Part shown: piece by piece, positions 3,427-34,912 of the stretch
Position numbering within the stretch: the first letter of the stretch is position 1
How the letters are laid out: each line of letters opens with the position of its first letter
IMG/VR virus record: IMGVR_UViG_3300037280_000106
Coordinates: 1-61,797 of that record
Direction: 5' to 3' (one strand)
DNA: 61,797 bases
From: a virus
Taxonomy: Duplodnaviria > Caudoviricetes
Position numbers and translations under genes: made by a program
Notes under the pieces: generated by a model
Told to the model about the DNA's origin: nothing
The model's input: only the letters and a program-made list of their open reading frames with translations
Database searches by the model: none

Positions 3427-3936
3427 TTACTTACAGGCTTTCTTCTTTGGTAGAATACTATCCTTAATATCTAACAGGTCAGAGGTTTTGATCAGTACTG
3501 TTTTTTCATTTTTTCGGGGTCTACAATAAAATCTATATAATTCTGGCGTATGAACAATACGTAAGTCTTTAACTTTATCAATAATAAATTTCTGCAATGC
3601 AGCCTTTGTGACGACTATAAACGAATTTATTTGCTCAAATGCGAAATAGTCTGCTTCGCCAAATAGCCAACCTGCTCTACCGTCAAGCATAAGCTCAACC
3701 CATTGGATATTTTCATTTGTTGATTCGTCATGTCTGTTAACGCTTTTCAATCCTTTGATTTCAAACTTTTTAGTAACTTGCTGAGGCGTACCCATAAAAA
3801 AAATCACAGCCCTGTCCCAATGCTCAAACATATTTTGAGACTTTGTTGCTTCATATGTATTTGGAAATAAGGCAGCAAATTCATCTTCAACCAATTCACC
3901 TATTGCTCGGCATCTTTCCTTTTCTTCTTCTAACAT
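3427..3936 (-). CDS. Putative PD-(D/E)xK nuclease-fold protein, divergent from the cas operon
   Basis: E...HWD...FEIKG, WVEL, GWLFGEADYFAFE; minus-strand TATATTTG promoter-like site near 3952-3959. Confidence 0.5.
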   Translation of the reverse strand: MLEEEKERCRAIGELVEDEFAALFPNTYEATKSQNMFEHWDRAVIFFMGTPQQVTKKFEIKGLKSVNRHDESTNENIQWVELMLDGRAGWLFGEADYFAFEQINSFIVVTKAALQKFIIDKVKDLRIVHTPELYRFYCRPRKNEKTVLIKTSDLLDIKDSILPKKKACK

Positions 3937-3990
3937 ATATTAAGTATTTTTGCAAATATATGCCATTATATTGAAAAAAGAAAGTATTTT

Positions 3991-4019
3991 TGTAACATTA
4001 TTAAATTAATAACGTATAA
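3991..4019 (+). promoter_or_regulatory. ECF-like phage promoter TGTAAC-N16-CGTATAA upstream of cas5 (one of 28 copies)
   Basis: tgtaac attattaaattaataa cgtataa; the same motif precedes many operons. Confidence 0.8.
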
Positions 4020-4037
4020 TCACTAAAATAAATACAT

Positions 4038-4607
4038 ATGCATGCAGTAAAATATACAGGAGACTTTGGTTTTATAAAGCCTTTTTCAGCATTAAGAGAC
4101 ATTAAAACATATAGCGTCTTAGGCTTAACGCCGTCAATTGTTATGGGCATTGAAACTAAATTATTTGGCGATTGTGCCAATAGAATCATTAGTCACAGAC
4201 TTTCATTTACAAATATTGTTTCAATGAAAGAACAAGCAACGTCAATTGGATATAAGATTGATAAAAATAAAAATAATACTTATCGTAAAAAGATTGGTTC
4301 AGTTATTGAAAGATTTGTGTTAGTAAATCCGTGTCTATATTTATTAGTTAATACGATAGAAGAAGCTGAGGAAATGAGTTGCCAAAACATAAGGCTTACT
4401 CGCAACGAAGAAATATTATTTCCAAGTAAAGACATTATCACTGTTAATGATCAAAATGCTTTTGATAGTGACGATTTTGAAGGCTACGAATTGGTATCAT
4501 GCGATGAAAACAATTTAAATGGTCAGTACTATGGCTCAAACAAATATACTGGTAAAGATCAGTATGCCTTTATGAAAGTCGTAGGAATACCAGAAGTCTT
4601 GAAATAA
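4038..4607 (+). CDS. cas5: CRISPR-associated Cas5 (type I-B-like)
   Basis: N-terminal YTGDFGFIKPF..RD..TYS...TPS RAMP motif; first gene of the cas operon. Confidence 0.75.
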   Translation: MHAVKYTGDFGFIKPFSALRDIKTYSVLGLTPSIVMGIETKLFGDCANRIISHRLSFTNIVSMKEQATSIGYKIDKNKNNTYRKKIGSVIERFVLVNPCLYLLVNTIEEAEEMSCQNIRLTRNEEILFPSKDIITVNDQNAFDSDDFEGYELVSCDENNLNGQYYGSNKYTGKDQYAFMKVVGIPEVLK

Positions 4608-6742
4608 TGGATAAAAGACACTTAGATGTACTTGCAAAAAGTATGCCTGATGGTACTTCACTATATCATCACCTATATGATGTTGGTCAGACTGCAAGAA
4701 TTTTCGCAAAGCACTTAAATTTTAATAGTGATACTGCTCAAAAAGGTGGGATATTCCATGATATAGGTAAAGCATCCACGCTTCAACAAGAAGTATTTGA
4801 CGTTGATTATGTAGACAATATTAATCGTGAAGTTTTTAGGCATGAGATATGTTCATTATTCTTTTTGTCATGTTTCGATAAAAGCATATGGAATGACTTA
4901 ATAGACTACGTGTCAGGACATCATAAATCGGTTGTAGATGATGCAAAACTACGAGGACTAATCGATCTAGTTGATATATATGGCTTCGATTATGTATTTG
5001 AGAGACATGCTACTAATTTCGAGCAATGGTCTGAAATGGCTCTTGATATATTGGAAAGTTTGGGGATTGAGCGAGTTGTACTAACGAGGGAAATGGCTAA
5101 AGATAACTTATTATATGCTTATAATTATCTATGTGCTGCAATTGAGAATAATAGTATCAGCAAACTCAGAGGCGTTTTAATTGGCTCAGACCATTTTGCG
5201 TCGGCTTTAAGGTACTCAACAATGAGACAACTTAATCGATTATTTAAAATTCCAAATATCGATTTTTATCATAATAGAGTATCAGATGAAAAATTATATC
5301 CTTTAGCATTCAAAACGATTGACTCAATAAAGCCACACACAATTATCATTGCGCCAACTGGAAGTGGTAAAACTGATTGCGTGATGAAAAGAACCAGAGG
5401 AAGAATCATGTATACATTACCTCAAACAGTTTCTATAAATTCAATGTATCAAAGACTTAAAAATAATTTAAGTGCTGATAATGAGGATTTAGATATCAGA
5501 GTGCTGCATTCAACGTCCAGAATAGTTGTTGATAATGGTAATATTACTGAAAAAGTAATGCAATCAAAAATAGGCGCATCGATCAAGGTAACGACGCCGC
5601 ACCAACTTCTTGAAATAGTATTTGGTGTGCAAGGCTATGAAGCAACTGTATGCGATCTAATTGGGTGTGACATAATACTGGATGAAATTCATACGTACTC
5701 TGATAAGATTCAGGCGTCTGTAGTAAAAATGATTGAACTATTGAATATGCTCGATTGTCGCATACATATCTGTACAGCAACTATATCATCAAAGCTTAAA
5801 GACAAAATTATTTCCATCTTAGGCGAAGATAATATTGAGATAATTACTCTAACAAAAGAAGAAACGAATACTTATGATAGGCATATAATACATAAGCATG
5901 ACATACGAACAAAGAACAATACACTTGATGATAAACTTATCGAAATTGTAACTAACACCGTAAAGAAAAACGAAAAAGTATTAATTGTAAAAAATCAGGT
6001 GGCGCATTCACAAATTGTTTACAATCAAATTGCGCCAATGTTTCCTGATATACCTGTTATTCTAATACATAGTCGTTTTAAAAGAGGTGCAAGAATTGAA
6101 TTAGAAAGAAAACTGACAGAGCTTAATTATGACAGAGATTCAGCATGTATTGTCATTGCCACACAAGTAGTCGAAGTAAGCTTGGATATAAGCTTGCACG
6201 TACTTATAACAGACTGCGCAACCATTGACGCATTAATACAACGATTGGGTAGAATAAATCGAATTCGTAATGCATCGACACTAGGCTTATTAATGCATGC
6301 GTACATAATTAAGCCACCAACATCAGATTATGAAGCCAACCCATATTCATTAAGATATTTAAATAAAACTTACGATGTTTTAAGGGATGGACAGGTTTTA
6401 AGAGAATGTGATCTGCAAAAATATATTGATTATGTGTATGACGATGTTGAGTTTACGTCAATAGATGCTGAGAGCATTTTGGTTAACGGAAAAATAGTTA
6501 TACCAAAATTAACGCATCATGCGAGATCATGCCTTTATAAACAATTTGATATATCGTCTGCGGTACTGATAACAAATTGTGATGTTGATGCGTATATCGA
6601 AGCGAATTTTGAGGAAAAGCTTAAGTTTGAAATACCTGTTCAGTTTTACACAATCGGAAAGTTGAACTTAAAACAGTTGCCAACAGGTGCATTTATTATT
6701 CCTGATAATTTCTATGACGAAAAATTAGGATTAATATTATAA
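4607..6742 (+). CDS. cas3: CRISPR-associated nuclease-helicase Cas3
   Basis: HD domain (HH, FHDIGK, RHE, GHH, SDH) and SF2 helicase (APTGSGKT, DEIH, TAT, HSRF, ATQVVEVSLDI, QRLGRINR). Confidence 0.95.
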   Translation: MDKRHLDVLAKSMPDGTSLYHHLYDVGQTARIFAKHLNFNSDTAQKGGIFHDIGKASTLQQEVFDVDYVDNINREVFRHEICSLFFLSCFDKSIWNDLIDYVSGHHKSVVDDAKLRGLIDLVDIYGFDYVFERHATNFEQWSEMALDILESLGIERVVLTREMAKDNLLYAYNYLCAAIENNSISKLRGVLIGSDHFASALRYSTMRQLNRLFKIPNIDFYHNRVSDEKLYPLAFKTIDSIKPHTIIIAPTGSGKTDCVMKRTRGRIMYTLPQTVSINSMYQRLKNNLSADNEDLDIRVLHSTSRIVVDNGNITEKVMQSKIGASIKVTTPHQLLEIVFGVQGYEATVCDLIGCDIILDEIHTYSDKIQASVVKMIELLNMLDCRIHICTATISSKLKDKIISILGEDNIEIITLTKEETNTYDRHIIHKHDIRTKNNTLDDKLIEIVTNTVKKNEKVLIVKNQVAHSQIVYNQIAPMFPDIPVILIHSRFKRGARIELERKLTELNYDRDSACIVIATQVVEVSLDISLHVLITDCATIDALIQRLGRINRIRNASTLGLLMHAYIIKPPTSDYEANPYSLRYLNKTYDVLRDGQVLRECDLQKYIDYVYDDVEFTSIDAESILVNGKIVIPKLTHHARSCLYKQFDISSAVLITNCDVDAYIEANFEEKLKFEIPVQFYTIGKLNLKQLPTGAFIIPDNFYDEKLGLIL

Positions 6743-6747
6743 AACAC

Positions 6748-6778
6748 TTGCTTATTAATATTATTTGAAATATCTTTG
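6748..6778 (+). promoter_or_regulatory. Bacteroidota housekeeping-type promoter (TTG...TATCTTTG) upstream of cas8
   Basis: TAnnTTTG -7 element with an upstream TTG in the cas3-cas8 gap. Confidence 0.55.
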
Positions 6779-6801
6779 TAAAAAATTAAAAAACTGTAAA
6801 T

Positions 6802-8094
6802 ATGATCGTCTCCAAATATGGTAAATTATTTCTTGACTATTACAATCAAAAAAATAATTGTGCGATAACACCCAAAGAATTTGTGACTGATAAGCTACTA
6901 CCATTTTTATATAATGGCAAAAGACTTATGTTTGTAATGAATTCAATTTTCACAAACCCAAGCAACAAAAAGTATTCTTTTGATGCTAAATTAAAGATGT
7001 TTGTTGAGGGAGTGGAAAACGGCGCATGCGACGCCAGTATTGTCATTGGCGGATTTGCAAAAGGTTTTGATGCCACTACAAGCTTTAATGTTGCTCTGGA
7101 TTACATTCCTAAATATAATGAAGATGATGTTTATTTAAGCTGGATTGGCGGTGCTCTCAGTGTTTCACTAGATACTAACAACATACAGTTTTTATTCAAT
7201 AGTCCTGAAATATTGTATGATATTTATACAGGATGGGAGCGATTAAACGTACTAAACAATGACCCAATTTACAAAGATTTTAGCGAAAATCAAATTAACA
7301 CGTATAATGGCTTATGGTTAAATTATCTCGCAAAGAAATCTAAACGTCCGTCAACACCTGAATTTAACCCTTATATTGATTCGGCTATAAAAAAGGGTGA
7401 TTCGTCATCGCTTATCAATACGTCATGGATATCGCTTTTATTTAATTTAGGCAACAGATATAATTATGATATGGTAAACGCTTATGTTTTCAGATATGTG
7501 AGAGATAATTTTACGTATGGTAATGTGAGCATTTATTTGAAAAAAATGAGCAATATAATTGAATATTTTAGATCAAATTTTGAAGGATATGACTACCTAA
7601 GCACCTTGGAAAATTATGAGAAGGTTGTCGGTAGAAATTCTTTAGACGCAATTTGTCGCTATGGCGTAATTGGCTTAATTCCTTTAAAACCTGAAATATT
7701 AAGGCTTGAGGAAAAATCATATTCTAAAGATGCTGATAAGAATAAATGTTACAACAATATTAATGCTTACGATCAAAAATTTATTAATTTATATATTATG
7801 TCGAAATTAAAATTTACAGACGATCAATTAGATAGCATCGTTAAAGGATTGCACACGTTTAAGGATAGTCCATCAACAAAAAGTAGCGGCACAAAAATTA
7901 TTGAGGAATTATGGAATGCTGGCAATAATTTAAAAGTCGTGAGTGTACTAACAAAGTTTGCCGAATACATTGGAAACGGAATTGAAAAGGAGACCATTTT
8001 ATCAATTGAAGCTCTTTTCAAATCAGAAAAAGTAATTGATTACAGAGAAATTATCGCTGTATTAAAATATAAGTATATAATGTTTAACAAATAA
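6802..8094 (+). CDS. cas8: Type I large subunit Cas8 (I-B-like), probably with an internally translated Cas11 from 7798
   Basis: 430 aa between cas3 and cas7; helical C-terminus; assigned mainly from gene order. Confidence 0.7.
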   Translation: MIVSKYGKLFLDYYNQKNNCAITPKEFVTDKLLPFLYNGKRLMFVMNSIFTNPSNKKYSFDAKLKMFVEGVENGACDASIVIGGFAKGFDATTSFNVALDYIPKYNEDDVYLSWIGGALSVSLDTNNIQFLFNSPEILYDIYTGWERLNVLNNDPIYKDFSENQINTYNGLWLNYLAKKSKRPSTPEFNPYIDSAIKKGDSSSLINTSWISLLFNLGNRYNYDMVNAYVFRYVRDNFTYGNVSIYLKKMSNIIEYFRSNFEGYDYLSTLENYEKVVGRNSLDAICRYGVIGLIPLKPEILRLEEKSYSKDADKNKCYNNINAYDQKFINLYIMSKLKFTDDQLDSIVKGLHTFKDSPSTKSSGTKIIEELWNAGNNLKVVSVLTKFAEYIGNGIEKETILSIEALFKSEKVIDYREIIAVLKYKYIMFNK

Positions 8095-8102
8095 AAATTG
8101 AA

Positions 8103-9203
8103 ATGAAAAAAAATTTAATGATTCGGGGTTTAAAAAAGATTGATTTTACTGTACTATGTGTCGATTCAGGACAGAAAACATATTATGATACAGTATCTGG
8201 TAGAAGCCTTCCATATTCTTCTGGACAACAGATTAAAAAGAGTATCATGAATAACATTTATGATAGCTCAGAATATTTTCCATCACCATTAATATTCTGG
8301 CATAATGCTGAGGGCGCAAAACTTACGCAAGGCGAAGTGATTCCTAAATGCGACCCAAGATACATTGATCAGTTACTTGCTGGATATATGGCTGCTGCCG
8401 CAAAAACTGACGGCGAACAAGAAGCCGTATTAAAAAGTAAAGCACATTTTGCCGTTAGCGCAATGACGCCATTTCACAGTAAATTGGCTGGATTGGTTGA
8501 AGAAAAGGTCATTATAAACAAAATTGACAATCCTGTATATAAACTTCGTAAAGTCGAGAAAAAAGGCGACAACGTTGAGCTATCTGAGTCTGAAATTATT
8601 GAATTCCTAAATGCAAACAATCAGAGATTCAGTAGTATTAAATTGATTCCATTAAAAAGTGGTGATCGTGCCCATAATCGTGCGAACGGAATCTTTAAAT
8701 ATGACGTTGATATCGATTTAGAGAGGCTTTTCAGGGTTTCTGTCTCATTGGGTAGTAATGAGATCAATTCAAAAATTGAAGGCGAATTAAAGGCTGCTGG
8801 TTGGAAAGAAGTGACTATTAAGAATATCACTTATCTCGAAATGCCGAAAGAATTTCATGATGAATATGCTGGCTTAATTGCACACGCCGTATTTAACTGG
8901 AAAATAACCTCAAATAATTCAAGGACATATGACAATATGGCAACCTTTGCAGCGGCTATTTGCACAGACGCAAAAGAAGTCCAGATATGTATGCAGTATG
9001 AGCCGTCAATTGACGACGACAATAAACTTGAAAAGGGCATTGCTTTGGATGGCGGTGGAAATGGTACAAAAATATTCTTAGAGAAATTTGCACTGGAATA
9101 TTTAAACATATCCTTTAATCCTGACGAAGTTACGCCAAAAAACAGAGCGATAACAGACGCTGAACAGTATGTAAAAGAAGCTATTCTCGAATACTATAAA
9201 TAA
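8103..9203 (+). CDS. cas7: CRISPR-associated Cas7 backbone subunit
   Basis: GQKTYYD...PYSSGQQIKKSI, DQLLAGYM, VSAMTPFH; 366 aa upstream of cas6. Confidence 0.8.
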   Translation: MKKNLMIRGLKKIDFTVLCVDSGQKTYYDTVSGRSLPYSSGQQIKKSIMNNIYDSSEYFPSPLIFWHNAEGAKLTQGEVIPKCDPRYIDQLLAGYMAAAAKTDGEQEAVLKSKAHFAVSAMTPFHSKLAGLVEEKVIINKIDNPVYKLRKVEKKGDNVELSESEIIEFLNANNQRFSSIKLIPLKSGDRAHNRANGIFKYDVDIDLERLFRVSVSLGSNEINSKIEGELKAAGWKEVTIKNITYLEMPKEFHDEYAGLIAHAVFNWKITSNNSRTYDNMATFAAAICTDAKEVQICMQYEPSIDDDNKLEKGIALDGGGNGTKIFLEKFALEYLNISFNPDEVTPKNRAITDAEQYVKEAILEYYK

Positions 9204-9208
9204 AAACA

Positions 9209-9910
9209 ATGAGATTCAAAATAACGTTGTCACCAAATGATACGTTGATTCCTTATAACTATAACGACATGATAATTAACTACATTCATGCCGTTATAGG
9301 AAAGGATAACTCGTTTCATGATAAGAAATCGCTATATTCAATTAGTGATCTATATCATCCTTATGATAGTAAGGGTACACCAAAAGGTATCGACTTTAAA
9401 AGCGGTGCGTACTTATTCGTGTCATCTGCCGACAATGAGTTTACAACCAAATTTCTGAGTAATGTATATGATCATCCTGTATTATTCAATGGCATGAAAA
9501 TAGAGTTGATTGAACTTGTACAAATGTACCCACAGAAGATTGCCGACAACACATACAAATATGTTGTCCAATCACCAGTTTTATTACAAAATAAAATAAA
9601 AAAGGATGATGGTAAGTCGTTTACAAACTTTTACACTTATGATGATGATGATCATCCTATTTATATGAAACGAATATTGCTAAGTAAACTCGATGAACTA
9701 AACATAGAATACGACCCGAACGATATTGAAATTTACTTCGATTCATCTTGTCGCAATAAACATATTAAATGGATTAAGGTTCATGGTATCAATAATAAAT
9801 GTTCCAGTTGTCCAGTTATTTTAAAAACAACAAATTCTCAAATACCACAAATACTTTTCGATATCGGAGTGGGACACAGCACAGGCTGTTGTTTTGGCTT
9901 TGTAAAATAA
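9209..9910 (+). CDS. cas6: CRISPR endoribonuclease Cas6
   Basis: MRFKI..IPYNY, SLYSIS, SPVLL, C-terminal G-rich loop GVGHSTGCCFG; adjacent to the array. Confidence 0.9.
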   Translation: MRFKITLSPNDTLIPYNYNDMIINYIHAVIGKDNSFHDKKSLYSISDLYHPYDSKGTPKGIDFKSGAYLFVSSADNEFTTKFLSNVYDHPVLFNGMKIELIELVQMYPQKIADNTYKYVVQSPVLLQNKIKKDDGKSFTNFYTYDDDDHPIYMKRILLSKLDELNIEYDPNDIEIYFDSSCRNKHIKWIKVHGINNKCSSCPVILKTTNSQIPQILFDIGVGHSTGCCFGFVK

Positions 9911-10117
9911 TTAAGGTTGTCGATGTCCAATAGCATGAAAATGATGGCACATCGACAACCTTCTCATTTATAATAGCTTATGATGATATTTAGCACTGCT
10001 TACCAATTATATTGTTAAATAAGTAATGCTAAAAAATGCACATCGACAACTTAAACATAAATCACAATTATAATTATCAAATAATCAACAACTTATAATT
10101 GCTAATTATTTGATCGG
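9911..10117 (+). promoter_or_regulatory. CRISPR leader
   Basis: AT-rich; inverted repeat AAGGTTGTCGATGT (9913-9926)/ACATCGACAACCTT (9949-9962); second GCACATCGACAAC at 10038-10050. Confidence 0.8.
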
Positions 10118-12355
10118 GTTTGAATCGTACTATAGTGGAATGTAAAGATAAAATGAAAACATCAGAAAAGATAATAAAAGCATGTTTGAATCGTACTATA
10201 GTGGAATGTAAAGTCATTAAACAGGTGGTTGCATACAGGAACAAAAGAAGTTTGAATCGTACTATAGTGGAATGTAAAGATCGTAGCACCTGAAACAACG
10301 CCCTTACCTTTTGCGTTTGAATCGTACTATAGTGGAATGTAAAGATGATTTAGAGTATGTTGGCTATATGAATGCTGATGTTTGAATCGTACTATAGTGG
10401 AATGTAAAGAGGGGTAACGGCAAAAGCCAGTTAATAATAGCACTGTTTGAATCGTACTATAGTGGAATGTAAAGACCCAAACAACAGTAACAGCAACAGT
10501 GGTGACGAGTTTGAATCGTACTATAGTGGAATGTAAAGGAATTTCCGTAACGCTGGTGGCGTCGTTGGTCGCAAGTTTGAATCGTACTATAGTGGAATGT
10601 AAAGATTGGGGACAACGTATTAGAAAGCGTTAAACGTTGTTTGAATCGTACTATAGTGGAATGTAAAGATCGCAGGCGTTGTGGCTTTAGGTGCTTCAAT
10701 CAAATGTTTGAATCGTACTATAGTGGAATGTAAAGTGGTTAACTGCATCAATTCGGTTAAGCCTGTTCTTGTTTGAATCGTACTATAGTGGAATGTAAAG
10801 CAATGATAACAGGCGTTTTAAGTAGTATAAATAGTTGTTTAAATAGTACCATACTGGAATGTAAAGTCAACTATAATCTTAACGGCTCTTAAGTTATGAA
10901 GTTTGAATAGTGCTATATGGAATGTAAAGTTGAAAGTAATATCAAAGGATGTCACGTCCTTTATGTTTGAATAGTACCATACTGGAATGTAAAGTCGTTA
11001 CCGTTTATGTCGATACACATGAAGCACGAGTTCGAATAGTACCAATTTGGAATGTAAAGGAGGCAACGTTACAAGCATATCTAAGGGGTAATAGAGTTTG
11101 AATAGTGCCATAGTGGAATGTAAAGTTACGTACAGCATTGACTTTTCCGCTCTTCATCCTATGTTTGAATAGTACCATACTGGAATGTAAAGTATGGTTA
11201 TATGAAAGTAGCTAAAAAGTTGGTAGTTGTTTGAATAGTGCCATAGTGGAATGTAAAGAAAATATGTAAGTCAAATCCAGTTCTTTGAATAGTTTGTTTG
11301 AATCGTATCATAGTGGAATGTAAAGACAAGTCTTATCAATAGCACAGTCGTATTAGATGCTGTTTGAATAGTGCTGTATGGAATGTAAAAAACGAATTCT
11401 TTTTCACATTACTATCTGTTGAGTAAGGCTTGAATTATACCATATGGAATGTAAAGGTTTTATCCATTCAAACGAAATATTTTTCTGTTTGAATAGTGTC
11501 ATATGAAATGTAAAGATAGAACGAAGACTAAGGCGATTAAAGTGCAACACGTGTTTGAATAGTACCATACTGGAATGTAAAAGCCAAAAAATACTTTGTT
11601 TGGATTGATCGAAGGTTGAATAATGCCATACTGGAATGTAAAGGCATCAATAAGGACAGCAAATTCCTGATACCAAGGGTGTTTGAATAGTGCCATAGTG
11701 GAATGTAAAGGAGTCAACGTTACAGGCATATCTAGAGGTAACAGAGTTTGAATGGTACTGGAATGGAATGTAAAGTTAGGGTATTTATCTAAAATAGACC
11801 TTATATAATTTGTTTAAATAGTGTCATATGGAATGTAAAAAGCGTCTGTCCGTTTTTAAGATTGATTTTGTTTAGGGCTTGAATGGTACTGGAATGGAAT
11901 GTAAAGAATAATGGGACAATTGTTTGTATATCTAATAACAGGTTTGAATAGTGTCATATGAGATGTAAAGTTTTCGACGAAACGAAATGACAAAAATTAC
12001 AAGATCAGACTTGAATAGTACTACGTGGAATGTAAAATACAATTTGGAGAGCATGTCATTAAAATGTTTGAATAATACTATGCGGAATGTAAATATCATA
12101 GACGCTGCTTCTTATTGTGTTAATCCTTGTTTGAATTATACCGTATGAAATGTAAAGTATGGAATGTAAATCACACGCCGCAGACCATTAATTTTTTATT
12201 TAATAAGTCTGAATAGTACCATGTGGAATGTAAAAAAATATTGATGTTCATCATTGTCGAGAAATTGCAGAGGTTTGAATTATACCATAGCGGAATGTAA
12301 AGTCAAGATCAAATTCGATCTGTTGAACAAGGAAATTATACCATAGTGGAATAAT
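10118..12355 (+). CRISPR. CRISPR array, about 35 repeats and 34 spacers; leader-proximal repeat GTTTGAATCGTACTATAGTGGAATGTAAAG
   Basis: 11 identical 30-nt repeats (10118-10800), then 29-30-nt variants; spacers mostly 34-38 nt; degenerate terminal repeat near 12331-12355. Confidence 0.98.
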
Positions 12356-12396
12356 CAAACAATCGACAACAAATCAAATTTAGTGTCGATTGTTTG
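12356..12396 (+). terminator. Hairpin at the array trailer
   Basis: CAAACAATCGACA...TGTCGATTGTTTG, overlapping the -35 box of the next promoter. Confidence 0.55.
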
Positions 12397-12436
12397 TAAC
12401 ATTTTTTAATTATTAACGTATAATCAATAAAAGAAT

Positions 12437-16739: not shown

Positions 16740-17135
16740 ATGACAGACCTACTTCAAAACTTTTTCGATTCATCTGATCGAAACAGATGGATATACTTTA
16801 CGCATATGAATGTATATGTTCGAAAAAGTTGGCGTAACTATCATCATATTCAGTCAAGTTTGCATTATCAAACATGTCTGGATATTGCAACTGTCGATGT
16901 TGAAGAAGATTATCAACACACTGGACTTTTTAAGGAATTTCTAACACATGCTGAGAGTATTAATATTTTTCCGCTAATCATGGTCGAAAACGTTCATAAT
17001 CCAGTGTTGCCAGAGTTCTTAAAATCAGTTGGCTACGTTGAGTACAATAATTTTAGCTTTATTAAGTTCAATGATCACTGTAAGGAATATGATGATTGGC
17101 AAGCAATTATCGAATCTTTAAAAGATAAACCATGA
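16740..17135 (+). CDS. GNAT-like acetyltransferase
   Basis: LDIATVDVEEDYQHTGLFKEFL resembles GNAT motif A. Confidence 0.5.
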   Translation: MTDLLQNFFDSSDRNRWIYFTHMNVYVRKSWRNYHHIQSSLHYQTCLDIATVDVEEDYQHTGLFKEFLTHAESINIFPLIMVENVHNPVLPEFLKSVGYVEYNNFSFIKFNDHCKEYDDWQAIIESLKDKP

Positions 17136-18142
17136 CAAGAGACGAATTCAGAGAAGGCGTGTTTGCCAGAGATAACCATAAATGTGTTATCTGTGGCAAA
17201 CCTGCTATGGATGCGCATCATATCTTAGAGCGAAGGCTGTTCGATAATGGCGGATATTTCTTCGACAATGGAGCATCTTTATGTTTCAATCATCATATTG
17301 AGGCTGAGCAAACTACGCTTAGTTGTGACGAAATAAGATTGAAAGCTGGCATAACAAATATTGTAATTCCAGAGCATTTCTATGGCGATCAAACTTACGA
17401 TAAGTGGGGTAATATTATTCTACCTACTGAACAACGTATTAAGGGTGAATTGTTTTACGATGAATCTGTTCAAAAAATATTGAAACAAGGTAACGTTTTA
17501 GACTTATTTCAAAAATATGTTAAGTATCAACGAACCTATCATTTACCTTGGAGTAACTTACTAAAGGATGATCGAATCATTAAGGACGATAGTAACTTTA
17601 TAGGCAAGAGAGTAATAGCCACTTTGAAAATGGATGGGGAAAACACTACCATGTATAACGACTACATTCATGCCAGATCATTGGAAAATGCTTCTCATGA
17701 GACAAGGAATTGGGTGAAAGGCTTATGGTCACAGATCGGTTACATGCTTGACGATAACATGCGAATTTGTGGCGAAAATCTTTATGCTCAACATTCCGTT
17801 AAATACGATAGTCTACCTTCATATTTTATGATGTTCTCCATGTGGAGTGACAATACTTGCATGTGTTGGGATGAAACTGTTGAGTATTCAAAGATATTGG
17901 GTTTGGAATTAGTTCCAGTGATTTACGATGGAATCTATAATAAGGATAAGATCATCGCAGCGTTTGAACCTCATAGGCTTACAAATGAGGGCTATGTGAT
18001 CAGGATTGCCGATGAATTCAATTATATTGATTTCAGAAGATCAATTGCCAAGTTCGTTAGACCTGAATTTAGACAAGCTGTCAACAATTCACATGGTCAC
18101 TGGATTTCAAAAAAGATTGAGCCGAATGGTTTAAAGTTGTAA
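17132..18142 (+). CDS. HNH domain fused to an ATP-dependent RNA ligase
   Basis: RDNHKCVICG..DAHHI...NGASLC..HH; ligase motifs KMDGEN, GEN, EGYVIR, AKFV. Confidence 0.85.
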   Translation: MTRDEFREGVFARDNHKCVICGKPAMDAHHILERRLFDNGGYFFDNGASLCFNHHIEAEQTTLSCDEIRLKAGITNIVIPEHFYGDQTYDKWGNIILPTEQRIKGELFYDESVQKILKQGNVLDLFQKYVKYQRTYHLPWSNLLKDDRIIKDDSNFIGKRVIATLKMDGENTTMYNDYIHARSLENASHETRNWVKGLWSQIGYMLDDNMRICGENLYAQHSVKYDSLPSYFMMFSMWSDNTCMCWDETVEYSKILGLELVPVIYDGIYNKDKIIAAFEPHRLTNEGYVIRIADEFNYIDFRRSIAKFVRPEFRQAVNNSHGHWISKKIEPNGLKL

Positions 18143-18566: not shown

Positions 18567-19505
18567 ATGAATAATTACACAAATATACTAAAAATTTTAG
18601 AGGGCTGCTTATTAGGTGATGGACATTTAGAATTGCCGAAAAGGGGCATAAACGCATCTTTTAAATATTTATCCTCTTCAAAAGAGCACACTGAATATGT
18701 TCACTCATTTTTCAAAGAATATTGTAGTGATAATTATCAAACAATAAAAAGAGGCGAATATTATGATAAAAGAACTAATAAAACATATGTCCATTATTAT
18801 TTTAGAACCAAATCATTACCATTTTTTACAGAACAACAAAAAAGGTTTTATATAAACAGAATTAAAATTGTTCCAAAGGATATAGATATTAATAATAATT
18901 CACTATTATTCTGGTTTATCGGTGATGGCGAGCTTGAAAGTAATATAGGCTTTGTGAAGTTGCATACGAATTCTTTCATAAAAAAAGACGTTGAATTTTT
19001 ATGCGAAAAACTAAAAGACTTTAGTGCAAACTTATTACATAAAAAAGATGATCAATATCTAATACGAATACCCAGAAATAAGGTAAAGCATTTTTTGAAC
19101 TTTATTGGCGAATGTCCTATAAATGACTATAAACATAAATGGGATTTCGTTGAGTATAAAAATAAAAATATTGAAATTAATGGCGTTAATCATTATTCCG
19201 AAATATATCCTTTAATAACAGCGGATTTTATTAAGGACGACGTCACAATATATGAACTATGTAAAAAATATGGCGTACCGATCAAAGCAATAAAGAATTA
19301 TTTTGATACAAATGATATTAAATGGAAACCGATAATTACAAAAAAGAAAATTTGTCAATATAATTTAAATGGTAAACTCATAAAAACTTGGAATTCAGGA
19401 CAAGACATAAAAAGGGAATTGAAATTTAATGCGACAGGTATTTCAGAATGTTGTAGAGGACTTAGAAAAAAATATAAAAATTTTATTTGGAAATTTAACA
19501 ATTAA
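18567..19505 (+). CDS. LAGLIDADG homing endonuclease with C-terminal NUMOD1/HTH domain
   Basis: ILEGCLLGDGHL, WFIGDG, KLHTNSF; QYNLNGKLIKTW...ISECCRG...FIWKF. Confidence 0.85.
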   Translation: MNNYTNILKILEGCLLGDGHLELPKRGINASFKYLSSSKEHTEYVHSFFKEYCSDNYQTIKRGEYYDKRTNKTYVHYYFRTKSLPFFTEQQKRFYINRIKIVPKDIDINNNSLLFWFIGDGELESNIGFVKLHTNSFIKKDVEFLCEKLKDFSANLLHKKDDQYLIRIPRNKVKHFLNFIGECPINDYKHKWDFVEYKNKNIEINGVNHYSEIYPLITADFIKDDVTIYELCKKYGVPIKAIKNYFDTNDIKWKPIITKKKICQYNLNGKLIKTWNSGQDIKRELKFNATGISECCRGLRKKYKNFIWKFNN

Positions 19506-29771: not shown

Positions 29772-30209
29772 ATGTCAGTAAAAATTCAGATCAACAGTGT
29801 TGAAGCACTTGAAAGACTTATCGGTGGAAACACTGAAATCGAAATCGAATTAAGACAATCAGTCGTTGAAAATTTTATGAAAAAGCATATCAATGCAATT
29901 GCCAACAGCAAGGTGTCGGCGGCAGTTACCAAAGACGTTTTGGCTGAATTGATTGTTCCAGCAAAAGATTACAGAAGTTCTGAATCACTTACTGCAAAAG
30001 CCAAAGACTTGTTACACAATACAATCGATTACCAATTCAAAACAATTTTGAACGAAGCACTTGATAAATATTTGACAGATACTGGAATTGATACACTTAT
30101 TAAAGAAAAGGCTTCTTACATTGCTGAAACTTTAACAAACGCCAGAATTGACGAAAGATTTGACAGACAAGTTGACGCTGAAATAAAAAAGAGATTAGGC
30201 TTGAAATAA
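29772..30209 (+). CDS. Hypothetical protein (start reassigned to MSVKIQ)
   Basis: ATG lies after the promoter at 29720; the longer ORF would overlap the hairpin and promoter. Confidence 0.6.
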   Translation: MSVKIQINSVEALERLIGGNTEIEIELRQSVVENFMKKHINAIANSKVSAAVTKDVLAELIVPAKDYRSSESLTAKAKDLLHNTIDYQFKTILNEALDKYLTDTGIDTLIKEKASYIAETLTNARIDERFDRQVDAEIKKRLGLK

Positions 30210-30283
30210 TTGCTTATTTTTGTAACCTTTTCAAAGTTTCAACGTATAAGTAGAAAATAAGTTCATTAAAACATTTAAGATAT

Positions 30284-30359
30284 GGCGGATTTTAGCTCAG
30301 TTCGGTAGAGCAGCCCAGCAAGGCAGGTCACTGGTTCGAATCCTTTACGTCCGCCGCCA
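30284..30359 (+). ncRNA. tRNA-like RNA with truncated anticodon arm and encoded CCA
   Basis: GGCGGAT/GTCCGCC stem, TAGCTCAGTTCGGTAGAGC D-arm, GGTTCGAATCC T-loop; anticodon arm only GCC-CAGCAA-GGC. Confidence 0.65.
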
Positions 30360-30435
30360 CATTCGCATGGGAACATGCAAGTTATCCATAATAAAGCTGT
30401 AATAACATATGATAAAAGCAGTATAAAAGTGGATA

Positions 30436-30512
30436 TGCGAGATAGCTCAGGTCTGGTAAGAGCGTGCCCACACATGTGGGCAAGGTCAGGTGTTCAAATC
30501 ATCTTCTCGCTA
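30436..30512 (+). ncRNA. tRNA-like RNA with non-canonical anticodon arm (TGCCC-ACACATGT-GGGCA)
   Basis: GCGAGA/TCTCGC acceptor, D-arm, GTTCAAATC T-loop; 8-nt self-pairing loop. Confidence 0.65.
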
Positions 30513-30531
30513 CAAATTAAAATTAAAAATA

Positions 30532-30813
30532 ATGGAAAAATATGAAGCTGGCAATACTCAGCCTGAGTTTATAGCTCTAAGAGAACAGATTTGCAATTCG
30601 TTGGCGAATTTAAATGACAATTTAAGTACGATTAATAGTAGAATTGATCTTCTAAATTTTAATCCTATTATAAAAGAGCCACGTTGCGAGGAAGAAGCTG
30701 ATAAAGGCAAAGGTACAAGTGCTATTGATAATCTCCAATACATTCTCGATGAAATCGACAGACTTATTGTCCTTACAAATACTTCGAGAACAAATATTTG
30801 TAGATTTATCTAA
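30532..30813 (+). CDS. Hypothetical protein (start reassigned to MEKYE)
   Basis: The upstream extension would overlap the tRNA-like RNA. Confidence 0.55.
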   Translation: MEKYEAGNTQPEFIALREQICNSLANLNDNLSTINSRIDLLNFNPIIKEPRCEEEADKGKGTSAIDNLQYILDEIDRLIVLTNTSRTNICRFI

Positions 30814-30829
30814 TAAAGTTCATTGAAAA

Positions 30830-31260
30830 TATTGTGAAAAGCGGCATCCGATTTTAGCGGCTGTGCGAGTCACATTAAGGCGGTAAACATGATTTAACAT
30901 GTTGTAATTTATTACGGTTATCCTACTGCCTTCGAAAATAAACTCTTTTGCTAAAAGCAAAACGACAGTATAAGTTACCTAAAGGTCAGTGTATAGACTG
31001 ACGATTCAAGGGGTTTGGCGCAACCAGACTCAATCAAAACTTAGTAGCCTTAACATGGCTATGTACTGAGATCATGCAAAGATCGTGTTTTGTGGATAGA
31101 TGGTATGGCACTTGAAAAAATGCCGCTGTTAGCCATTACGTGATCGGTTAGATTCCGATTACCATTTCCTTGCAAGAACAAAAGAGATAGAAAAGGTTCT
31201 GAGGCTCAAACCTCATTGAAGTCGACGGATGATATGAGGACTTAATCTCAGACCTTTTTG
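30830..31260 (+). ncRNA. Candidate structured non-coding RNA(s), including a degenerate tRNA-like unit at 31099-31167
   Basis: No ORF, boxA-like motif upstream, many hairpins; ATGGTA/TACCAT acceptor with ATCGG-TTAGATT-CCGAT T-arm. Confidence 0.5.
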
Positions 31261-31364
31261 TTAAAATATTCGCAGGTATATCACGATACGTGCAAATTTG
31301 CTCTTTTATGACCAATGTCTAATAACGTGATTGACGACAATAGGCTTAAAGAGTGTACAAAGGA

Positions 31365-31435
31365 AGTACCGTAGCTCAGTTGGATAGAGCGTCTTCTAAC
31401 GAGGAAGGTCATAGGTTCGAACCCTGTCGGTATAA
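31365..31435 (+). ncRNA. tRNA-like RNA (Arg-TCT-like remnant) lacking the 5' anticodon stem
   Basis: GTACCG/CGGTAT acceptor, TAGCTCAGTTGGATAGAGC, CTTCTAA loop without a stem, GGTTCGAACCC. Confidence 0.6.
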
Positions 31436-31521
31436 CAATTATGATACCTTGCATAGGAATATGCAAATTGCTTATAATAAAAACGTAATAAGCTAGAATA
31501 AAAGCGTAATAAAAATGAGTA

Positions 31522-31597
31522 TGTGGAATAGCTTAGTCTGGGCTAAAGCACTACATTGATACTGTAGAGATCGTTGGCTCAAATCCAACTTCCGCAA
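31522..31597 (+). tRNA. tRNA-Ile(GAT)
   Basis: TGTGGAA/TTCCGCA acceptor; CTACA-TTGATAC-TGTAG anticodon arm; GTTGG-CTCAAAT-CCAAC T-arm. Confidence 0.75.
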
Positions 31598-31619
31598 CTA
31601 AAAGAAGTTCTTTGAAAAT

Positions 31620-31945
31620 AAACGCCTAAGAGTGTGAGAGGAAGAAGCCAACGGTAAGACGGTCAACTCACAAATCTCTGCTCTATGGTGTGTTTTATTG
31701 TGAATTAAAAACAGGCGTAGTATCATAAAGGCATCTATGTATGTCACGCATAGACTTATCGCCGATTGTCAATTTGATACAGTTCACAAAAATATAACAA
31801 AGAGTGCCACATAAAGTCCCCGATGTCTTGGGGATCGACGGCATAAGTGGTTTAGCGACTCAAAAGTTCGGCACTCACGGAATTTGTAACCGTATTTTAA
31901 GGACTAAAATTATGTCAAGACTGACGTGGGAAAGACCTCAAAAAT
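31620..31945 (+). ncRNA. Candidate structured non-coding RNA
   Basis: No ORF; boxA-like motif upstream; long-range stems ACGCCT/AGGCGT and GAGTGCC/GGCACTC. Confidence 0.45.
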
Positions 31946-32016
31946 TGGCTAGATAGTTCAAGTTGGATAGAACGTCTGGATCGAGAAAGTCGCAGGTTCG
32001 AACCCTGCCTAGCCAG
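31946..32016 (+). ncRNA. tRNA-like RNA with truncated anticodon arm
   Basis: TGGCTAG/CTAGCCA acceptor, GTTC..GAAC D-stem, GCAGG-TTCGAAC-CCTGC T-arm; arm only TCT-GGATCG-AGA. Confidence 0.65.
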
Positions 32017-32038
32017 CAAATTTAAAATTCTTACAGTC

Positions 32039-32308
32039 ATGGGAAAAGCATTAATTGCTATATTAGTTATTATATTTTTATATGTTGGTCTACATAGATA
32101 TGAACAAATTCAGAACTATGAGGCAAAAGTAAAAACATACAATACAATTGTCGTACTTAATGATTCAATAAGAAACGAAATTGCTGCTGGTAAGGCTTAT
32201 TATAATTATCTTATTTATAAAAGAGAAGTTATAAGAGAATGCAACAGACGTAATGTCGAATTGGACATGGACGCAATTGACTTAGCATACGAGCAATTAA
32301 AAAAATAA
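32039..32308 (+). CDS. Membrane-anchored hypothetical protein
   Basis: N-terminal hydrophobic helix. Confidence 0.55.
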   Translation: MGKALIAILVIIFLYVGLHRYEQIQNYEAKVKTYNTIVVLNDSIRNEIAAGKAYYNYLIYKREVIRECNRRNVELDMDAIDLAYEQLKK

Positions 32309-32439
32309 TATATGGGACACTATTGCGATTATTACGATTTTTACAGTGAGAGAGATCAGATTTTAAAAATGCGTAGAGAGAAAAAGCACAAGGTATCCTG
32401 TGCGATAGGTCATTCAAAACGTAAAAAGAAACGTTAAAA

Positions 32440-32835
32440 TATGAACGTGGTTTCATAAGGTGTTTTTCAATCGTATACAGGTTGAGAGCATTGAGGGGAG
32501 TTTTAAGAGTGAAAGTATAGGAAGATCGATTAATTCCTAATGATAGCGATTAATAGCGGCTCGTTGCCGCACATGTTTCACCATGAGGGCTTTTGAGGGT
32601 ATGCATACTTTCTTAAGTTATTGACTGCCAAGTCTAAAACGCTGAGATATCTAAGGCGATGCGGATTATAGTCTCTAAAACTCAACAGAATAAAGATAAG
32701 TTCAGTTCTGCTTAAGGTAAATAGTAACATGCGTAGTATGTTAAAGGTCAATACCGAGATCGTTATTTGCTGAGAGTTCAGGCACTGCCAGAAGGTAGGT
32801 TAGCCAAATTATGACTTGGTAAGTCAGACCAGAAA
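32440..32835 (+). ncRNA. Candidate large structured non-coding RNA
   Basis: About 400 nt without an ORF inside the tRNA island, with several short hairpins. Confidence 0.4.
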
Positions 32836-32850
32836 TGTTCTTTAAAGGTT

Positions 32851-32928
32851 TGCGATGTGGTTCGTAGTGCTATAGTGGAATGTAAAACTGCATAAGTCAG
32901 CTTGTCGGTGAAAATCCGATCATCGCAA
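32851..32928 (+). ncRNA. tRNA-scaffold RNA containing a solitary CRISPR repeat (32865-32887)
   Basis: TGCGATG/CATCGCA acceptor, GTCGG-TGAAAAT-CCGAT T-arm; internal TAGTGCTATAGTGGAATGTAAA matches the array repeats. Confidence 0.75.
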
Positions 32929-32959
32929 ATCTTTTTTTAATTTTTAAGTACGTAATATC

Positions 32960-33408
32960 ATGGGAAGAACACTAGAAGACTTTGACAAATTCACTACACA
33001 AGACTTATTCGACGAAATCCTTAGCATGGAGAAAGGCGATCTGTATGATGGTTGTAGTAGCAAAGGCTTACAGCGTGAACAAAATGCCGCAAAAAAAGTG
33101 TTCGGAGAACGAATGCAAAAATTAGGATTTGATTGGATTTTATAAAATTAAAGATGAAGAAAAACACAATATTTATAATTATAATGCTTGCTCTATGTCT
33201 TGCTGTCGCAGCATATTCCGCTTACAGCGTATCAAGTAGTTATGATAGAATGATTTTAGCTATTGACAAGGCATCTAACGATGCATATGTTCAAGGTTTG
33301 GTTGACGGTATGAACTTTAAAAACATAAATGATACGTCAAAAATCAATTACAGATATAAATTGGTCTTAGTGGGGGATTCCATTCTAAAGCCAATCAAAA
33401 AAAAATAA
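32960..33408 (+). other. Two small hypothetical ORFs (32960-33145; 33133-33408 with a signal/TM segment)
   Basis: ORF track. Confidence 0.5.
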
Positions 33409-33565
33409 GAACACCACTCGGCTGACGTTTGGGTTCGATTAATAGCTGATGAAGTATCAGGGTTGTTAGAACCATGATGAAATATGGGAATTTACTTTGA
33501 GTAGTCGGCTATTTTTATTGTATTTTTTGTAACAAATTTTAATTTGTAACGTATAAGTAATAAAT

Positions 33566-33700
33566 GGCGGAATAGCGAAATTGGTACACGTTATATTTGG
33601 ACTATGGGCGATGTTTAACGATAAGACAAACTCTAAATTCCATTTATAAGCTCAGACTTATCGCTTACGAGTGCTACTGGTTCGAGTCCAGTTTCTGCCA
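33566..33700 (+). ncRNA. Leu-type tRNA-like RNA with an insertion of roughly 50 nt in the anticodon region
   Basis: GGCGGAA/TTCTGCC acceptor, GCGAAATTGGTACACG D-arm, ACTGG-TTCGAGT-CCAGT T-arm; 135 nt; directly after the promoter at 33528. Confidence 0.65.
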
Positions 33701-33773
33701 CAGGTCGGGTAATGCCCGAATGAACTTTGGAGTGCGAGGTAGCCAAAGCCAGATCGAAAAAATGCTCGCCCAT

Positions 33774-33852
33774 GTCGATTTAGCTCAGTCTGGTAGAGCA
33801 GCGTAAATCCTACAACGGTGGTTGGTCGGAAGTTCGAATCTTCCATTCGGCA
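33774..33852 (+). ncRNA. tRNA-like RNA with scrambled anticodon arm
   Basis: TAGCTCAGTCTGGTAGAGC D-arm, GGAAG-TTCGAAT-CTTCC T-arm. Confidence 0.6.
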
Positions 33853-33939
33853 CAATGCAGTATTCTCCGAAAGGAACGAGCATTAATAGTAACATCGCCA
33901 GCGAGGTTCGCACTAAAGCTTTAGCAACTGGCATTTTAT

Positions 33940-34139
33940 GGAGTTATGCGACAGGGATTTGTCGCACCTATTTATAGGATTGTAATGACCTGTTTATAGG
34001 ATGGCAATGATGCAGAAAAGAATTATTGAGTAGTAACATTTAGCTGATGTTACGATTCAACCGATCTGTAATCATAAATAAAAATAGCAATTGCGCAGTT
34101 GCTTATTTTAGCCTTTGGGTTCGACTCCCTTTAGCTTCA
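33940..34139 (+). ncRNA. 200-nt RNA closed by a tRNA-like acceptor stem and T-arm
   Basis: GGAGTTA/TAGCTTC-A, GGG-TTCGACT-CCC, internal hairpins such as TGCGAC/GTCGCA. Confidence 0.55.
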
Positions 34140-34144
34140 CATTA

Positions 34145-34304
34145 GGAGAGGCGGCTCATAAAAATCTGGAAAATCCAGATGCTGAAAAGTATAAAAAATT
34201 CTTCTCCGCACAGTACATGAGGTATAATTGTTCGCTGTATATGGCTTAAGTAACATATATGGAATCGTCTTAAAAAATGAGCAAGGCTGAGACATACCTC
34301 TCCA
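34145..34304 (+). ncRNA. 160-nt RNA closed by an acceptor-like stem
   Basis: GGAGAGG/CCTCTCC-A, GCTCAT/ATGAGC, ATCTGG-AAAAT-CCAGAT hairpin. Confidence 0.45.
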
Positions 34305-34314
34305 CATTAATACA

Positions 34315-34355
34315 CCTTCCATGCCTCTCTAAGATGCACACTTGGAAGGTTTTTT
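34315..34355 (+). terminator. Hairpin with T-tract ending the RNA island
   Basis: ACCTTCCA...TGGAAGGT followed by Ts. Confidence 0.55.
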
Positions 34356-34614
34356 CTTTAAAAATACATTGTTATGGAAATTTATTTTGTTTTTGATCTT
34401 GTAGCATTTTTCGCATTCCTTATATGTACAATCGTAAGCTTCGGAATGTCTGATCTTTACTCTGATATCTGTGAAAAGAAATGTTGGCATAATTATGGAA
34501 TGTTCTATGGAGTGATGACTGTTATATGTTTACTTGTTTTAGTATTGTTAATAATCATCGGAATAAAGACAGCATAAATTGTAACAAATGCAATTTTCCA
34601 ACGTATAAGCAAGT

Positions 34615-34902: not shown

Positions 34903-34912
34903 ATAGTATAGT

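Follow-up and report, generated by a model that had tools for sequence, protein, structure and literature searches.

Can a phage that carries a full set of effector genes and a long CRISPR array, with no spacer-uptake genes beside them, hold a working interference system, and where would its spacers come from? The question is raised by a locus at positions 4038-12355 of IMG/VR virus record IMGVR_UViG_3300037280_000106, a linear DNA of 61,797 bases that was analysed over its entire length (hereafter, the window). An earlier, sequence-only reading had described the locus as a phage-encoded, active type I-B-like CRISPR-Cas system with an intact Cas3 and a dependence on host Cas1-Cas2. Our analysis indicates that a large phage of peat communities probably carries here a type I-B interference module that comes from an I-B lineage common in Bacteroidota and has strongly diverged since. 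Most of the sequence-only reading was borne out, namely the I-B module, the intact-looking Cas3, the phage nature of the fragment and the lack of adaptation genes in that fragment; a lack throughout the phage and the dependence on host Cas1-Cas2 are plausible suppositions.

A type I-B effector operon in a phage fragment

Five open reading frames (ORFs) follow one another as cas5-cas3-cas8-cas7-cas6 (Table 1), in agreement with the full Cascade set plus Cas3 that had been read from the sequence. PADLOC I-B models match all five proteins over nearly their whole length, which supplies the profile-based subtype call that had been proposed as a check. The effector features of subtype I-B are present: a Cas3 with HD nuclease and superfamily 2 (SF2) helicase parts, the Cas8b signature subunit, an I-B-type Cas7, Cas5 and Cas6. 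Pfam finds HD, DEAD, Helicase_C and Cas3-like_C_2 in the 711-residue Cas3 and Cas_Cas6_C in Cas6 (expect value, E, 4.6e-9), and the NCBIfam model TIGR01587 (cas3_core) scores 193.6 bits, above its cut-off of 102.45. On Cas5, Cas8 and Cas7 the Pfam and NCBIfam models are far weaker than those of PADLOC, and Cas8 has no match in Pfam or NCBIfam. Because the PADLOC models match end to end and several NCBIfam scores fall below their cut-offs, the five proteins are best described as clear but diverged family members. Internal methionine codons at residues 249 and 333 of Cas8b could be candidate starts of a Cas11-like product. The locus has no megablast match among GenBank phages; tblastn with Cas3 against the same phages gives five records, all partial and 26-38% identical, and a single-sequence query of IMG/VR with Cas7 found nothing.

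The surroundings of the operon are those of a phage, as the sequence-only reading had it. Besides the viral classification of the record, the window holds rIIA and rIIB, an RNA ligase, several homing endonucleases, a Thg1-like enzyme, a tRNA cluster and many PHROG-only families, and almost all genes lie on one strand. Neither a capsid nor a portal or terminase gene was recognised in the window, and no housekeeping gene was found among the 37 ORFs scanned. CheckV rates the 61.8 kb as 19% complete, so the full genome would measure about 300 kb, with more than 200 kb probable; no contig on record that carries this Cas7 is longer than 65,225 bases. A near-identical or the same contig is present in 24 runs labelled peat metagenome, which possibly stem from one campaign and among which no RNA run is listed. 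The only relative of the phage found is a 13.6-kb IMG/VR contig (rIIA 75% identical; DNA 76-82% identical to 37.9-46.4 kb of the window), and no close cultured relative of the phage turned up. A Bacteroidota host is suggested only by the Cas phylogeny described below.

Signs of function in the effector genes

Conservation was scored over alignment columns that are at least 95% conserved in homologues (71 for Cas3, 73 for Cas5). Cas3 keeps 135 of 157 such columns, including HD, Walker A (GxGKT), DExH and motif VI; the residues kept comprise H51 and D52, H105 and H106, T251, G252, G254, K255 and T256, D359, E360 and H362, and Q545, R546, G548 and R549. The corresponding counts are 58 of 87 for Cas7, 32 of 49 for Cas5, 24 of 43 for Cas8 and 16 of 23 for Cas6.

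Alignment of contigs from four peat runs to the locus revealed a co-occurring variant strain; the deepest run, X1, covers the locus about 55x. Third codon positions account for 27 of the 40 variant sites listed (binomial p 1e-5; a further 27 sites lie outside this listing), and 30 of the 37 codons affected among the listed sites are changed synonymously; the strain variants in cas5, cas3 and cas8 are mostly synonymous. Together with the Cas3 motifs, the repeat ends, the leader inverted repeat and the spacer-identical habitat sequences described below, these data indirectly support a module that may be active in interference. The earlier claim of an intact Cas3 in an active system is thus sustained in its first half by the catalytic motifs, while its second half draws on the synonymous codons and the in-habitat spacer matches as indirect support.

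A long array with conserved repeat ends

The array follows cas6 and a leader, has the same direction as the cas genes and is built of repeats that resemble those of the family. Compared with repeat 1, its 23 diverged repeats agree at 95% over the leading 8 columns and at 96% over the final 12, but at only 66% over the 11 columns between. Such a pattern would be expected if the parts that contribute to the handle of the CRISPR RNA (crRNA) were under selection; uniform decay would differ. In type I systems the last eight repeat bases become the crRNA 5' handle. The repeat of the window carries ATGTAAAG where a host-type repeat carries ATTGAAAC. This end occurs in none of 54 related arrays, all of which finish in ATTGAAA and one base; among three further arrays from a 401-genome sample, two also end in ATTGAAA and one base and the third ends in ATTGAGAC. 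The altered repeat end and the diverged Cas5, Cas7, Cas8 and Cas6 together suggest that guide and complex may have co-evolved away from the bacterial form.

The best repeat match among relatives covers 24 of 30 bases, with a similar 5' half, and lies in the array of genome G206. A degenerate repeat pattern gave three single matches in IMG/VR, none of them an array. The only other carrier of an ATGTAAA end that was found is a 3.2-kb metagenome contig (L085) with a mini-array of about six repeats and no cas genes; after this mini-array come about 260 nucleotides (nt) of other sequence with TTCGACAAC, and then a second array begins at the contig end.

The array is polymorphic in nature, as run X17 carries a three-unit deletion (10961 to 11160) between two identical repeats, those at 10965 and 11163. 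A second joint in X17, from 4009 to 6901, has only 23 letters on its shorter side and was disregarded, and loose contig ends at 3984, 3987, 4032, 12409 and 12431, considered as signs of an alternative cassette, are most simply read as further occurrences of the promoter motif described below. Spacers 15 (11060-11095) and 25 (11711-11745) are diverged copies of each other, with 19 of 20 core bases alike and the remainder similar; they are either a duplicated unit that drifted or two spacers from variants of one target.

Twenty kilobases from the array, in an ORF-poor tRNA region, stands a solitary repeat-like unit whose last bases agree with array repeat 16 at 22 of 23 positions and whose 5' part is diverged. 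It lies inside a predicted fold on the plus strand (32844-32934; -28.5 kcal/mol, z -3.44) that is followed by a U run. The 43 nt downstream of the unit have no convincing match in the window. The unit may be a stand-alone crRNA-like or regulatory RNA, and its membership in the system is uncertain.

A probable family leader with a phage-type promoter-like element

The sequence-only reading had placed a phage promoter before the operon. The motif is real: TTGTAACA-N17-CGTATAAT has three exact copies in the window (3990, 12394 and 28901) and none in 100 shuffles, and its 3' half, AACGTATAAK, is matched 23 times against 10.2 expected and precedes several further ORFs, including rIIA and rIIB. Its promoter activity is putative, and a generic sigma-70 scan gave no excess (45 sites against 52 expected).

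The leader contains an inverted repeat, GTTGTCGAT-N26-ATCGACAAC, and another ATCGACAAC at 10042; a -10-like AACTTATAAT occupies 10090-10099, and the junction with repeat 1 reads CGG. Of the five exact ATCGACAAC copies that the window holds, four lie on either side of the array. The present data document the inverted repeat as a conserved feature of the Bacteroidota I-B lineage. Many loci of that lineage (L004-L076) carry GTTGTCGAT-N(21-26)-ATCGACAA some 86-118 nt before their first repeat and a third half-site close to -207, and ATCGACA occurs in the Bacteroides fragilis leader given in PMC5704556. Among 50 related leaders, 25 have TCGACA at -85 to -89, and the reverse half-site is found around -117 and -207. 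When 11 related leaders are aligned with that of the window, the inverted repeat is seen to be common to them and the window, and the CGG before repeat 1 to be shared by six of the 11. Between this element and repeat 1 the window has about 82 extra nt, which carry AACTTATAAT, a one-mismatch copy of the 3' part of the phage motif, 18 nt before the first repeat. We read the leader as a probable kept family leader fitted with a phage promoter element. Conservation of the half-sites in sequence suggests a protein-binding site; no assigned function was encountered, in a literature survey that included no search directed at the motif.

Candidate protospacers in the same habitat

Two spacers have counterparts in the peat runs. 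Spacer 4 (10345-10379) is matched by single contigs in runs X1 and X17, and spacer 29 by one contig in run X20 over 11971-12003 (33 of 37 nt); each of these contigs matches the window only in that stretch and has non-repeat flanks. The protospacers are preceded by CAA and CCA, two cases from which no protospacer-adjacent motif (PAM) is called; CCA agrees with a PAM of CCN type, which PMC9367070 implies for B. fragilis I-B. The DNA in which the two protospacers lie reads as coding sequence. The likeliest targets would be other DNA elements of the same peat communities, whether competing phages or other mobile elements. Compared with 4 and then 401 Bacteroidota genomes, the array found only arrays with related repeats and three matches of 31-34 nt at 88-90% (E about 3e-4 to 5.5e-4), and these three, considered as targets, were treated as chance.

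Adaptation genes and the uptake of spacers

No match to Pfam Cas1, Cas2 or Cas4 at E <= 1 was found in six frames of the 61,797 bases, which agrees with the reported lack of these genes in the window, and tblastn with Bacteroides hominis Cas1, Cas2 and Cas4 gave chance matches only (E >= 4.6). Since about four fifths of the genome are missing from the record, this absence holds for the locus and the fragment, not for the whole phage.

A divergent 169-residue ORF, the one opposite-strand gene of notable size in the neighbourhood of the cas operon, was considered as Cas4 and rejected: BLASTP against bacterial Cas4 gives E 0.08, and no Cas4 chain is among the structure matches listed. It has no Pfam, NCBIfam, PADLOC or PHROG match and belongs to a large unnamed family of proteins of 160-170 residues (801 matches at E <= 1e-3) with conserved E17, H39, D41 and K61. 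A single-sequence model was useless (predicted local distance difference test, pLDDT, 41); the model built from 81 homologues (pLDDT 95.5) has a PD-(D/E)xK nuclease fold and resembles NhoI (Z 9.4), I-Ssp6803I (Z 9.0) and Hjc (Z 7.8). By this model the protein is probably a separate small nuclease, perhaps a homing endonuclease.

The eleven identical proximal repeats indicate that new spacers have entered at the leader end. Eleven identical repeats beside older, diverged ones would reflect repeated uptake after a variant repeat became leader-proximal. Contigs from the runs break at these identical repeats, so that gain or loss of spacers at the leader end is unreadable there. The enzymes of uptake could be either a host I-B Cas4-Cas1-Cas2 acting in trans or the products of genes in the unsampled part of the phage genome. 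Dependence on host Cas1-Cas2, as the sequence-only reading supposed, is plausible and would fit the identical proximal repeats, the kept leader inverted repeat and the CGG junction. A repeat 3' end, ATGTAAAG, unlike that of the 54 related arrays would count against easy cross-use with host adaptation.

Relatives and origin of the module

A Cas7 profile run against GTDB genomes detected relatives in 385 of 400 candidate stretches, from which 80 loci, mostly of Bacteroidota, were kept. The Cas7 of the window is 34-41% identical to those of the 80 genome loci, and its Cas8 is 24-33% identical to those of related loci. The complete five-gene set was detected at 64 of the 81 related loci and there always reads cas6-cas5-cas3-cas8-cas7. 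The window has the cas5-cas3-cas8-cas7 core in common with them and carries cas6 last, not first. Among the 62 loci with at least 2.3 kb beyond cas7, cas4-cas1 come next in 54 (with cas2 in 51), followed by the array; in the window, cas6 and the leader occupy this place. Adaptation genes are absent beside cas7 in seven of the 61 bacterial loci with room for them, two of which (L050 and L072) are plainly chromosomal. The effector operon of L050 (1-5124, a Chitinophagales metagenome-assembled genome) directly follows a Cas9-like gene (RuvC_III, HNH), and the two systems there may share adaptation genes.

In the Cas3 tree the window falls inside a Bacteroidota-dominated clade (Shimodaira-Hasegawa approximate likelihood ratio test, SH-aLRT, 97), and its terminal branch, 1.11 substitutions per site long, compares with a median of 0.23. 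The Cas3 of another phage system, on a 237-kb IMG/VR contig (L001), nests among Prevotellaceae, with 67% identity to Prevotella proteins. In the best tree the two phage proteins stand apart. This placement, the order of the genes, the ends of the repeats and the lack of kinship between the flanks suggest that the two systems were captured separately; the approximately unbiased (AU) test does not reject a tree that unites them (p 0.108).

How the module would act

In the mechanism that we propose, operon and array would be transcribed rightward during infection, and Cas6 would cut each repeat 8 nt before its end, yielding crRNAs with a ATGTAAAG 5' handle. Cas8b, Cas7 and Cas5 would assemble on these crRNAs as Cascade, which a Cas11 from within cas8b may join; Cascade would bind matching DNA beside a PAM, and Cas3 would be recruited and shred the target. 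An extension of this scheme, speculative and rather unlikely in our estimation, is that of a private crRNA code. The altered handle end (ATTGAAA to ATGTAAAG), with a matching Cas6 and Cascade, would keep the phage crRNAs apart from a host I-B system, the leader signals would be kept so that host Cas4-Cas1-Cas2 still load spacers, and the unit at 32857-32887 would be a guide or regulatory RNA.

Evidence against the module and rival explanations

Several observations weigh against an active I-B module. The case for its activity is a sequence-based one, and the record covers about 19% of the genome. Three NCBIfam cut-offs are missed (cas3_HD 41.7 against 43.45 bits, Cas7 21.5 against 72.75, Cas6 50.3 against 58.65), and conserved columns are changed at 29 of 87 positions in Cas7, 17 of 49 in Cas5, 19 of 43 in Cas8 and 7 of 23 in Cas6. 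As many as 23 of the 34 repeats are diverged, a few of them near the handle (GAAATG, GAGATG). Each protospacer is known from one contig per run, the preceding bases differ (CAA and CCA), and the protospacer contigs could be a self-match in the unsampled part of this phage. With the whole array as query, GenBank phages yielded nothing better than E 2, a chance level; an exact scan of IMG/VR with spacer 4 and the 33 nt of spacer 29 found none; the spacers have no target in the 401 Bacteroidota genomes; and against the array-less window and the 81 related loci they match over at most 18 nt among the matches listed, a chance level.

The most serious alternative, although still an unlikely one, is that cas4, cas1 and cas2 lie elsewhere in the phage genome and that the phage adapts alone, as ICP1 does. 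The unseen four fifths leave room for such genes, the eleven identical leader-proximal repeats point to repeated uptake, and a cognate integrase of the phage's own would fit a repeat end (ATGTAAA) that none of the 54 related arrays has. Yet relatives carry cas4-cas1 directly after cas7 (54 of 62), the very place that cas6 and the leader fill here; L001, 237 kb long, about 65% complete and with the same five genes, has no Cas1, Cas2 or Cas4 anywhere; and almost all huge-phage systems are without these genes (PMC7162821). A somewhat less plausible alternative leaves the enzymology aside and concerns the target: the module might act mainly against the host (host genes, defence islands), or repress, and not serve against phages. 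Phage spacers against host transcription and translation genes are on record (PMC7162821), and both protospacers lie in DNA that reads as coding, but no spacer has a match in the 401 Bacteroidota genomes sampled or in the 80 genome loci related to that of the window, an argument that is weak because the genome sample is small and the host is not identified. The intact Cas3 argues for degradation and not for repression.

We regard it as very improbable that the cas genes and array, after a single capture, have lost their function and are decaying as a relic. Such decay could account for the 23 diverged repeats, the very long branch of the Cas proteins, the many family-conserved residues changed in Cas5, Cas7 and Cas8, and database searches that gave no target. 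However, none of the five ORFs is interrupted or shortened, Cas3 retains its catalytic motifs, synonymous changes make up 30 of the 37 variant codons of the co-occurring strains, the divergence of the repeats avoids both ends, and spacer 29, although distal, is still matched exactly over 33 nt in the habitat. We give even less credence to the view that the contig is a bacterial chromosome, plasmid or other element with an ordinary truncated I-B locus. Truncation of that kind does occur, as the seven bacterial loci of 61 without cas4-cas1-cas2 beside cas7 show (L050 and L072 being clearly chromosomal), and the window offers no identified capsid, portal or terminase gene; against this stand the IMG/VR virus class, the rIIA/rIIB pair, RNA ligase, homing endonucleases, Thg1-like and PurZ-like genes, tRNAs and PHROG-only families, the nearly complete co-direction of genes that have a promoter-like motif in common, and the 37 scanned ORFs with no housekeeping gene among them.

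Feature coordinates and further observations

The features discussed above are collected in Table 1. Elsewhere in the window, homing-endonuclease-like genes are dense (17132-18142, 18567-19505, 40231-41064 and 48755-49636; HNH, LAGLIDADG and other types), and the RNA ligase is fused to one HNH domain. The plus-strand ORF at 58498-59658 encodes an adenylosuccinate-synthetase homologue (PF00709) that matches phrog_1211, a family annotated for the 2-aminoadenine/Z-base pathway, at E 1.8e-57; its product may be PurZ-like, PurZ and PurA not being distinguished, and phage DNA modification is possible. The stretch 30200-35000 has few ORFs, four to five tRNA or tRNA-like genes, three of them with odd anticodon loops (ARAGORN), several copies of AACGTATAAG, and a match to the Rfam abiF RNA at 34315-34350 (38.1 bits, the gathering threshold being 37).

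Table 1. Coordinates of the I-B locus, its array and other features of the 61,797-base window (aa, amino acids)
Feature	Position	Strand	Description
Promoter-like motif TTGTAACA-N17-CGTATAAT	3990-4020	+	18 nt before cas5 start codon
cas5b	4038-4607	+	189 aa; PADLOC Cas5 CAS-I-B E 1e-42, residues 1-185 on profile 1-175 of 178
cas3	4607-6742	+	711 aa, HD nuclease fused to SF2 helicase; PADLOC Cas3b E 2e-240
cas8b, large subunit	6802-8094	+	430 aa; PADLOC Cas8b CAS-I-B E 2.3e-56, residues 1-429 on profile 1-418 of 419
cas7b, backbone subunit	8103-9203	+	366 aa; PADLOC Cas7b E 1.8e-74
cas6b, crRNA endoribonuclease	9209-9910	+	233 aa; PADLOC Cas6b E 3.3e-48; last in operon
Leader	9911-10117	+	207 nt; inverted repeat GTTGTCGAT-N26-ATCGACAAC at 9916-9959
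CRISPR array	10118-12302	+	34 repeats of 29-30 nt, 33 spacers, mostly 34-37 nt
Leader-proximal array part	10118-10800	+	11 identical 30-nt repeats GTTTGAATCGTACTATAGTGGAATGTAAAG, 10 spacers of 34-37 nt
Distal array part	10837-12302	+	23 diverged repeats, 2-7 differences each from repeat 1; spacers 28-49 nt
Decayed 35th repeat	12327-12356	+	Terminal; ATGTAAAG end lost
Trailer hairpin	12356-12396	+	ATCGACA / TGTCGAT half-sites (one at 12362); runs into next promoter-like motif, 12394-12424
Solitary repeat-like unit	32857-32887	+	20 kb from array, ORF-poor tRNA region; exact TGGAATGTAAA at 32876
Divergent ORF	3427-3936	-	169 aa; only sizeable opposite-strand gene near cas operon
rIIA	41103-43358		Phage-typical gene
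rIIB	43428-44765		Phage-typical gene

Comparison with known systems

Among the closest known systems is the Bacteroidota I-B type, described for B. fragilis with a large subunit named cas8b6 (PMC5704556, also PMC9367070). The window has the same five effector families, the cas5-cas3-cas8-cas7 core, repeats 29-30 nt long with spacers of about 35-37 nt, and it also has the leader inverted repeat GTTGTCGAT...ATCGACAAC. The usual bacterial layout is cas6-cas5-cas3-cas8-cas7-cas4-cas1-cas2-array, whereas the window lacks cas4-cas1-cas2 at the locus and has cas6 moved last. Its repeat ends in ATGTAAAG where theirs end in ATTGAAA(C/T/G), its proteins are 34-46% identical to theirs and sit on a long branch, it is phage-borne, and its leader has about 82 extra nt with a phage-type -10. 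The L001 system is alike in its five-gene family and in having an array, here of 10 repeats, with no Cas1, Cas2 or Cas4 in the record, but it keeps the bacterial order cas6-cas5-cas3-cas8-cas7, its repeats end in ATTGAAAT, its flanks have no clear homology to the window and it has no rIIA.

Other mobile elements also carry I-B systems that do without an adaptation module. The I-B CRISPR-associated transposons (PMC11656645) are Tn7-like elements that have lost Cas3, whereas the Cas3 of the window is intact and no transposase family was found among the flanking ORFs scanned, a scan that included no dedicated Tns search. The provirus-encoded incomplete I-B system of Haloferax (PMC12596717) is archaeal and integrated, unlike the window. 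Vibrio phage ICP1 encodes a type I-F system with its own adaptation module that targets the PLE island (PMC11656645); both are phage-borne type I weapons that comprise Cas3 and an array, and the window differs in being I-B with no adaptation genes seen.

The claim that huge phages often carry Cas1-less systems has a real precedent in the survey of Al-Shayeb et al. 2020 (PMC7162821), where almost all huge-phage CRISPR systems are without Cas1, Cas2 and Cas4. Like them, the module is phage-borne, keeps its effector catalytic residues and lacks the three genes within the fragment. It departs from them in array length, with 34 repeats against their median of six, and in its nuclease, the type I example given there being an I-C variant with a helicase in place of Cas3, whereas the window has a canonical HD-helicase Cas3. 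Adaptation-less phage CRISPR-Cas systems are already established (PMC7162821, PMC11656645), and this general picture is unchanged; particular to the present case are the canonical Cas3, the length of the array, the position of cas6 at the end of the operon, the changed 3' end of the repeat, the leader kept from the family and the in-habitat protospacers. The locus makes testable how Cas1-less phage arrays gain spacers and whether phage and host systems of the same subtype cross-talk or are insulated. Its value is that of a well-defined case, with an array long for a phage, signs of selection in repeats, leader and genes, and a bacterial sister lineage with which it can be compared.

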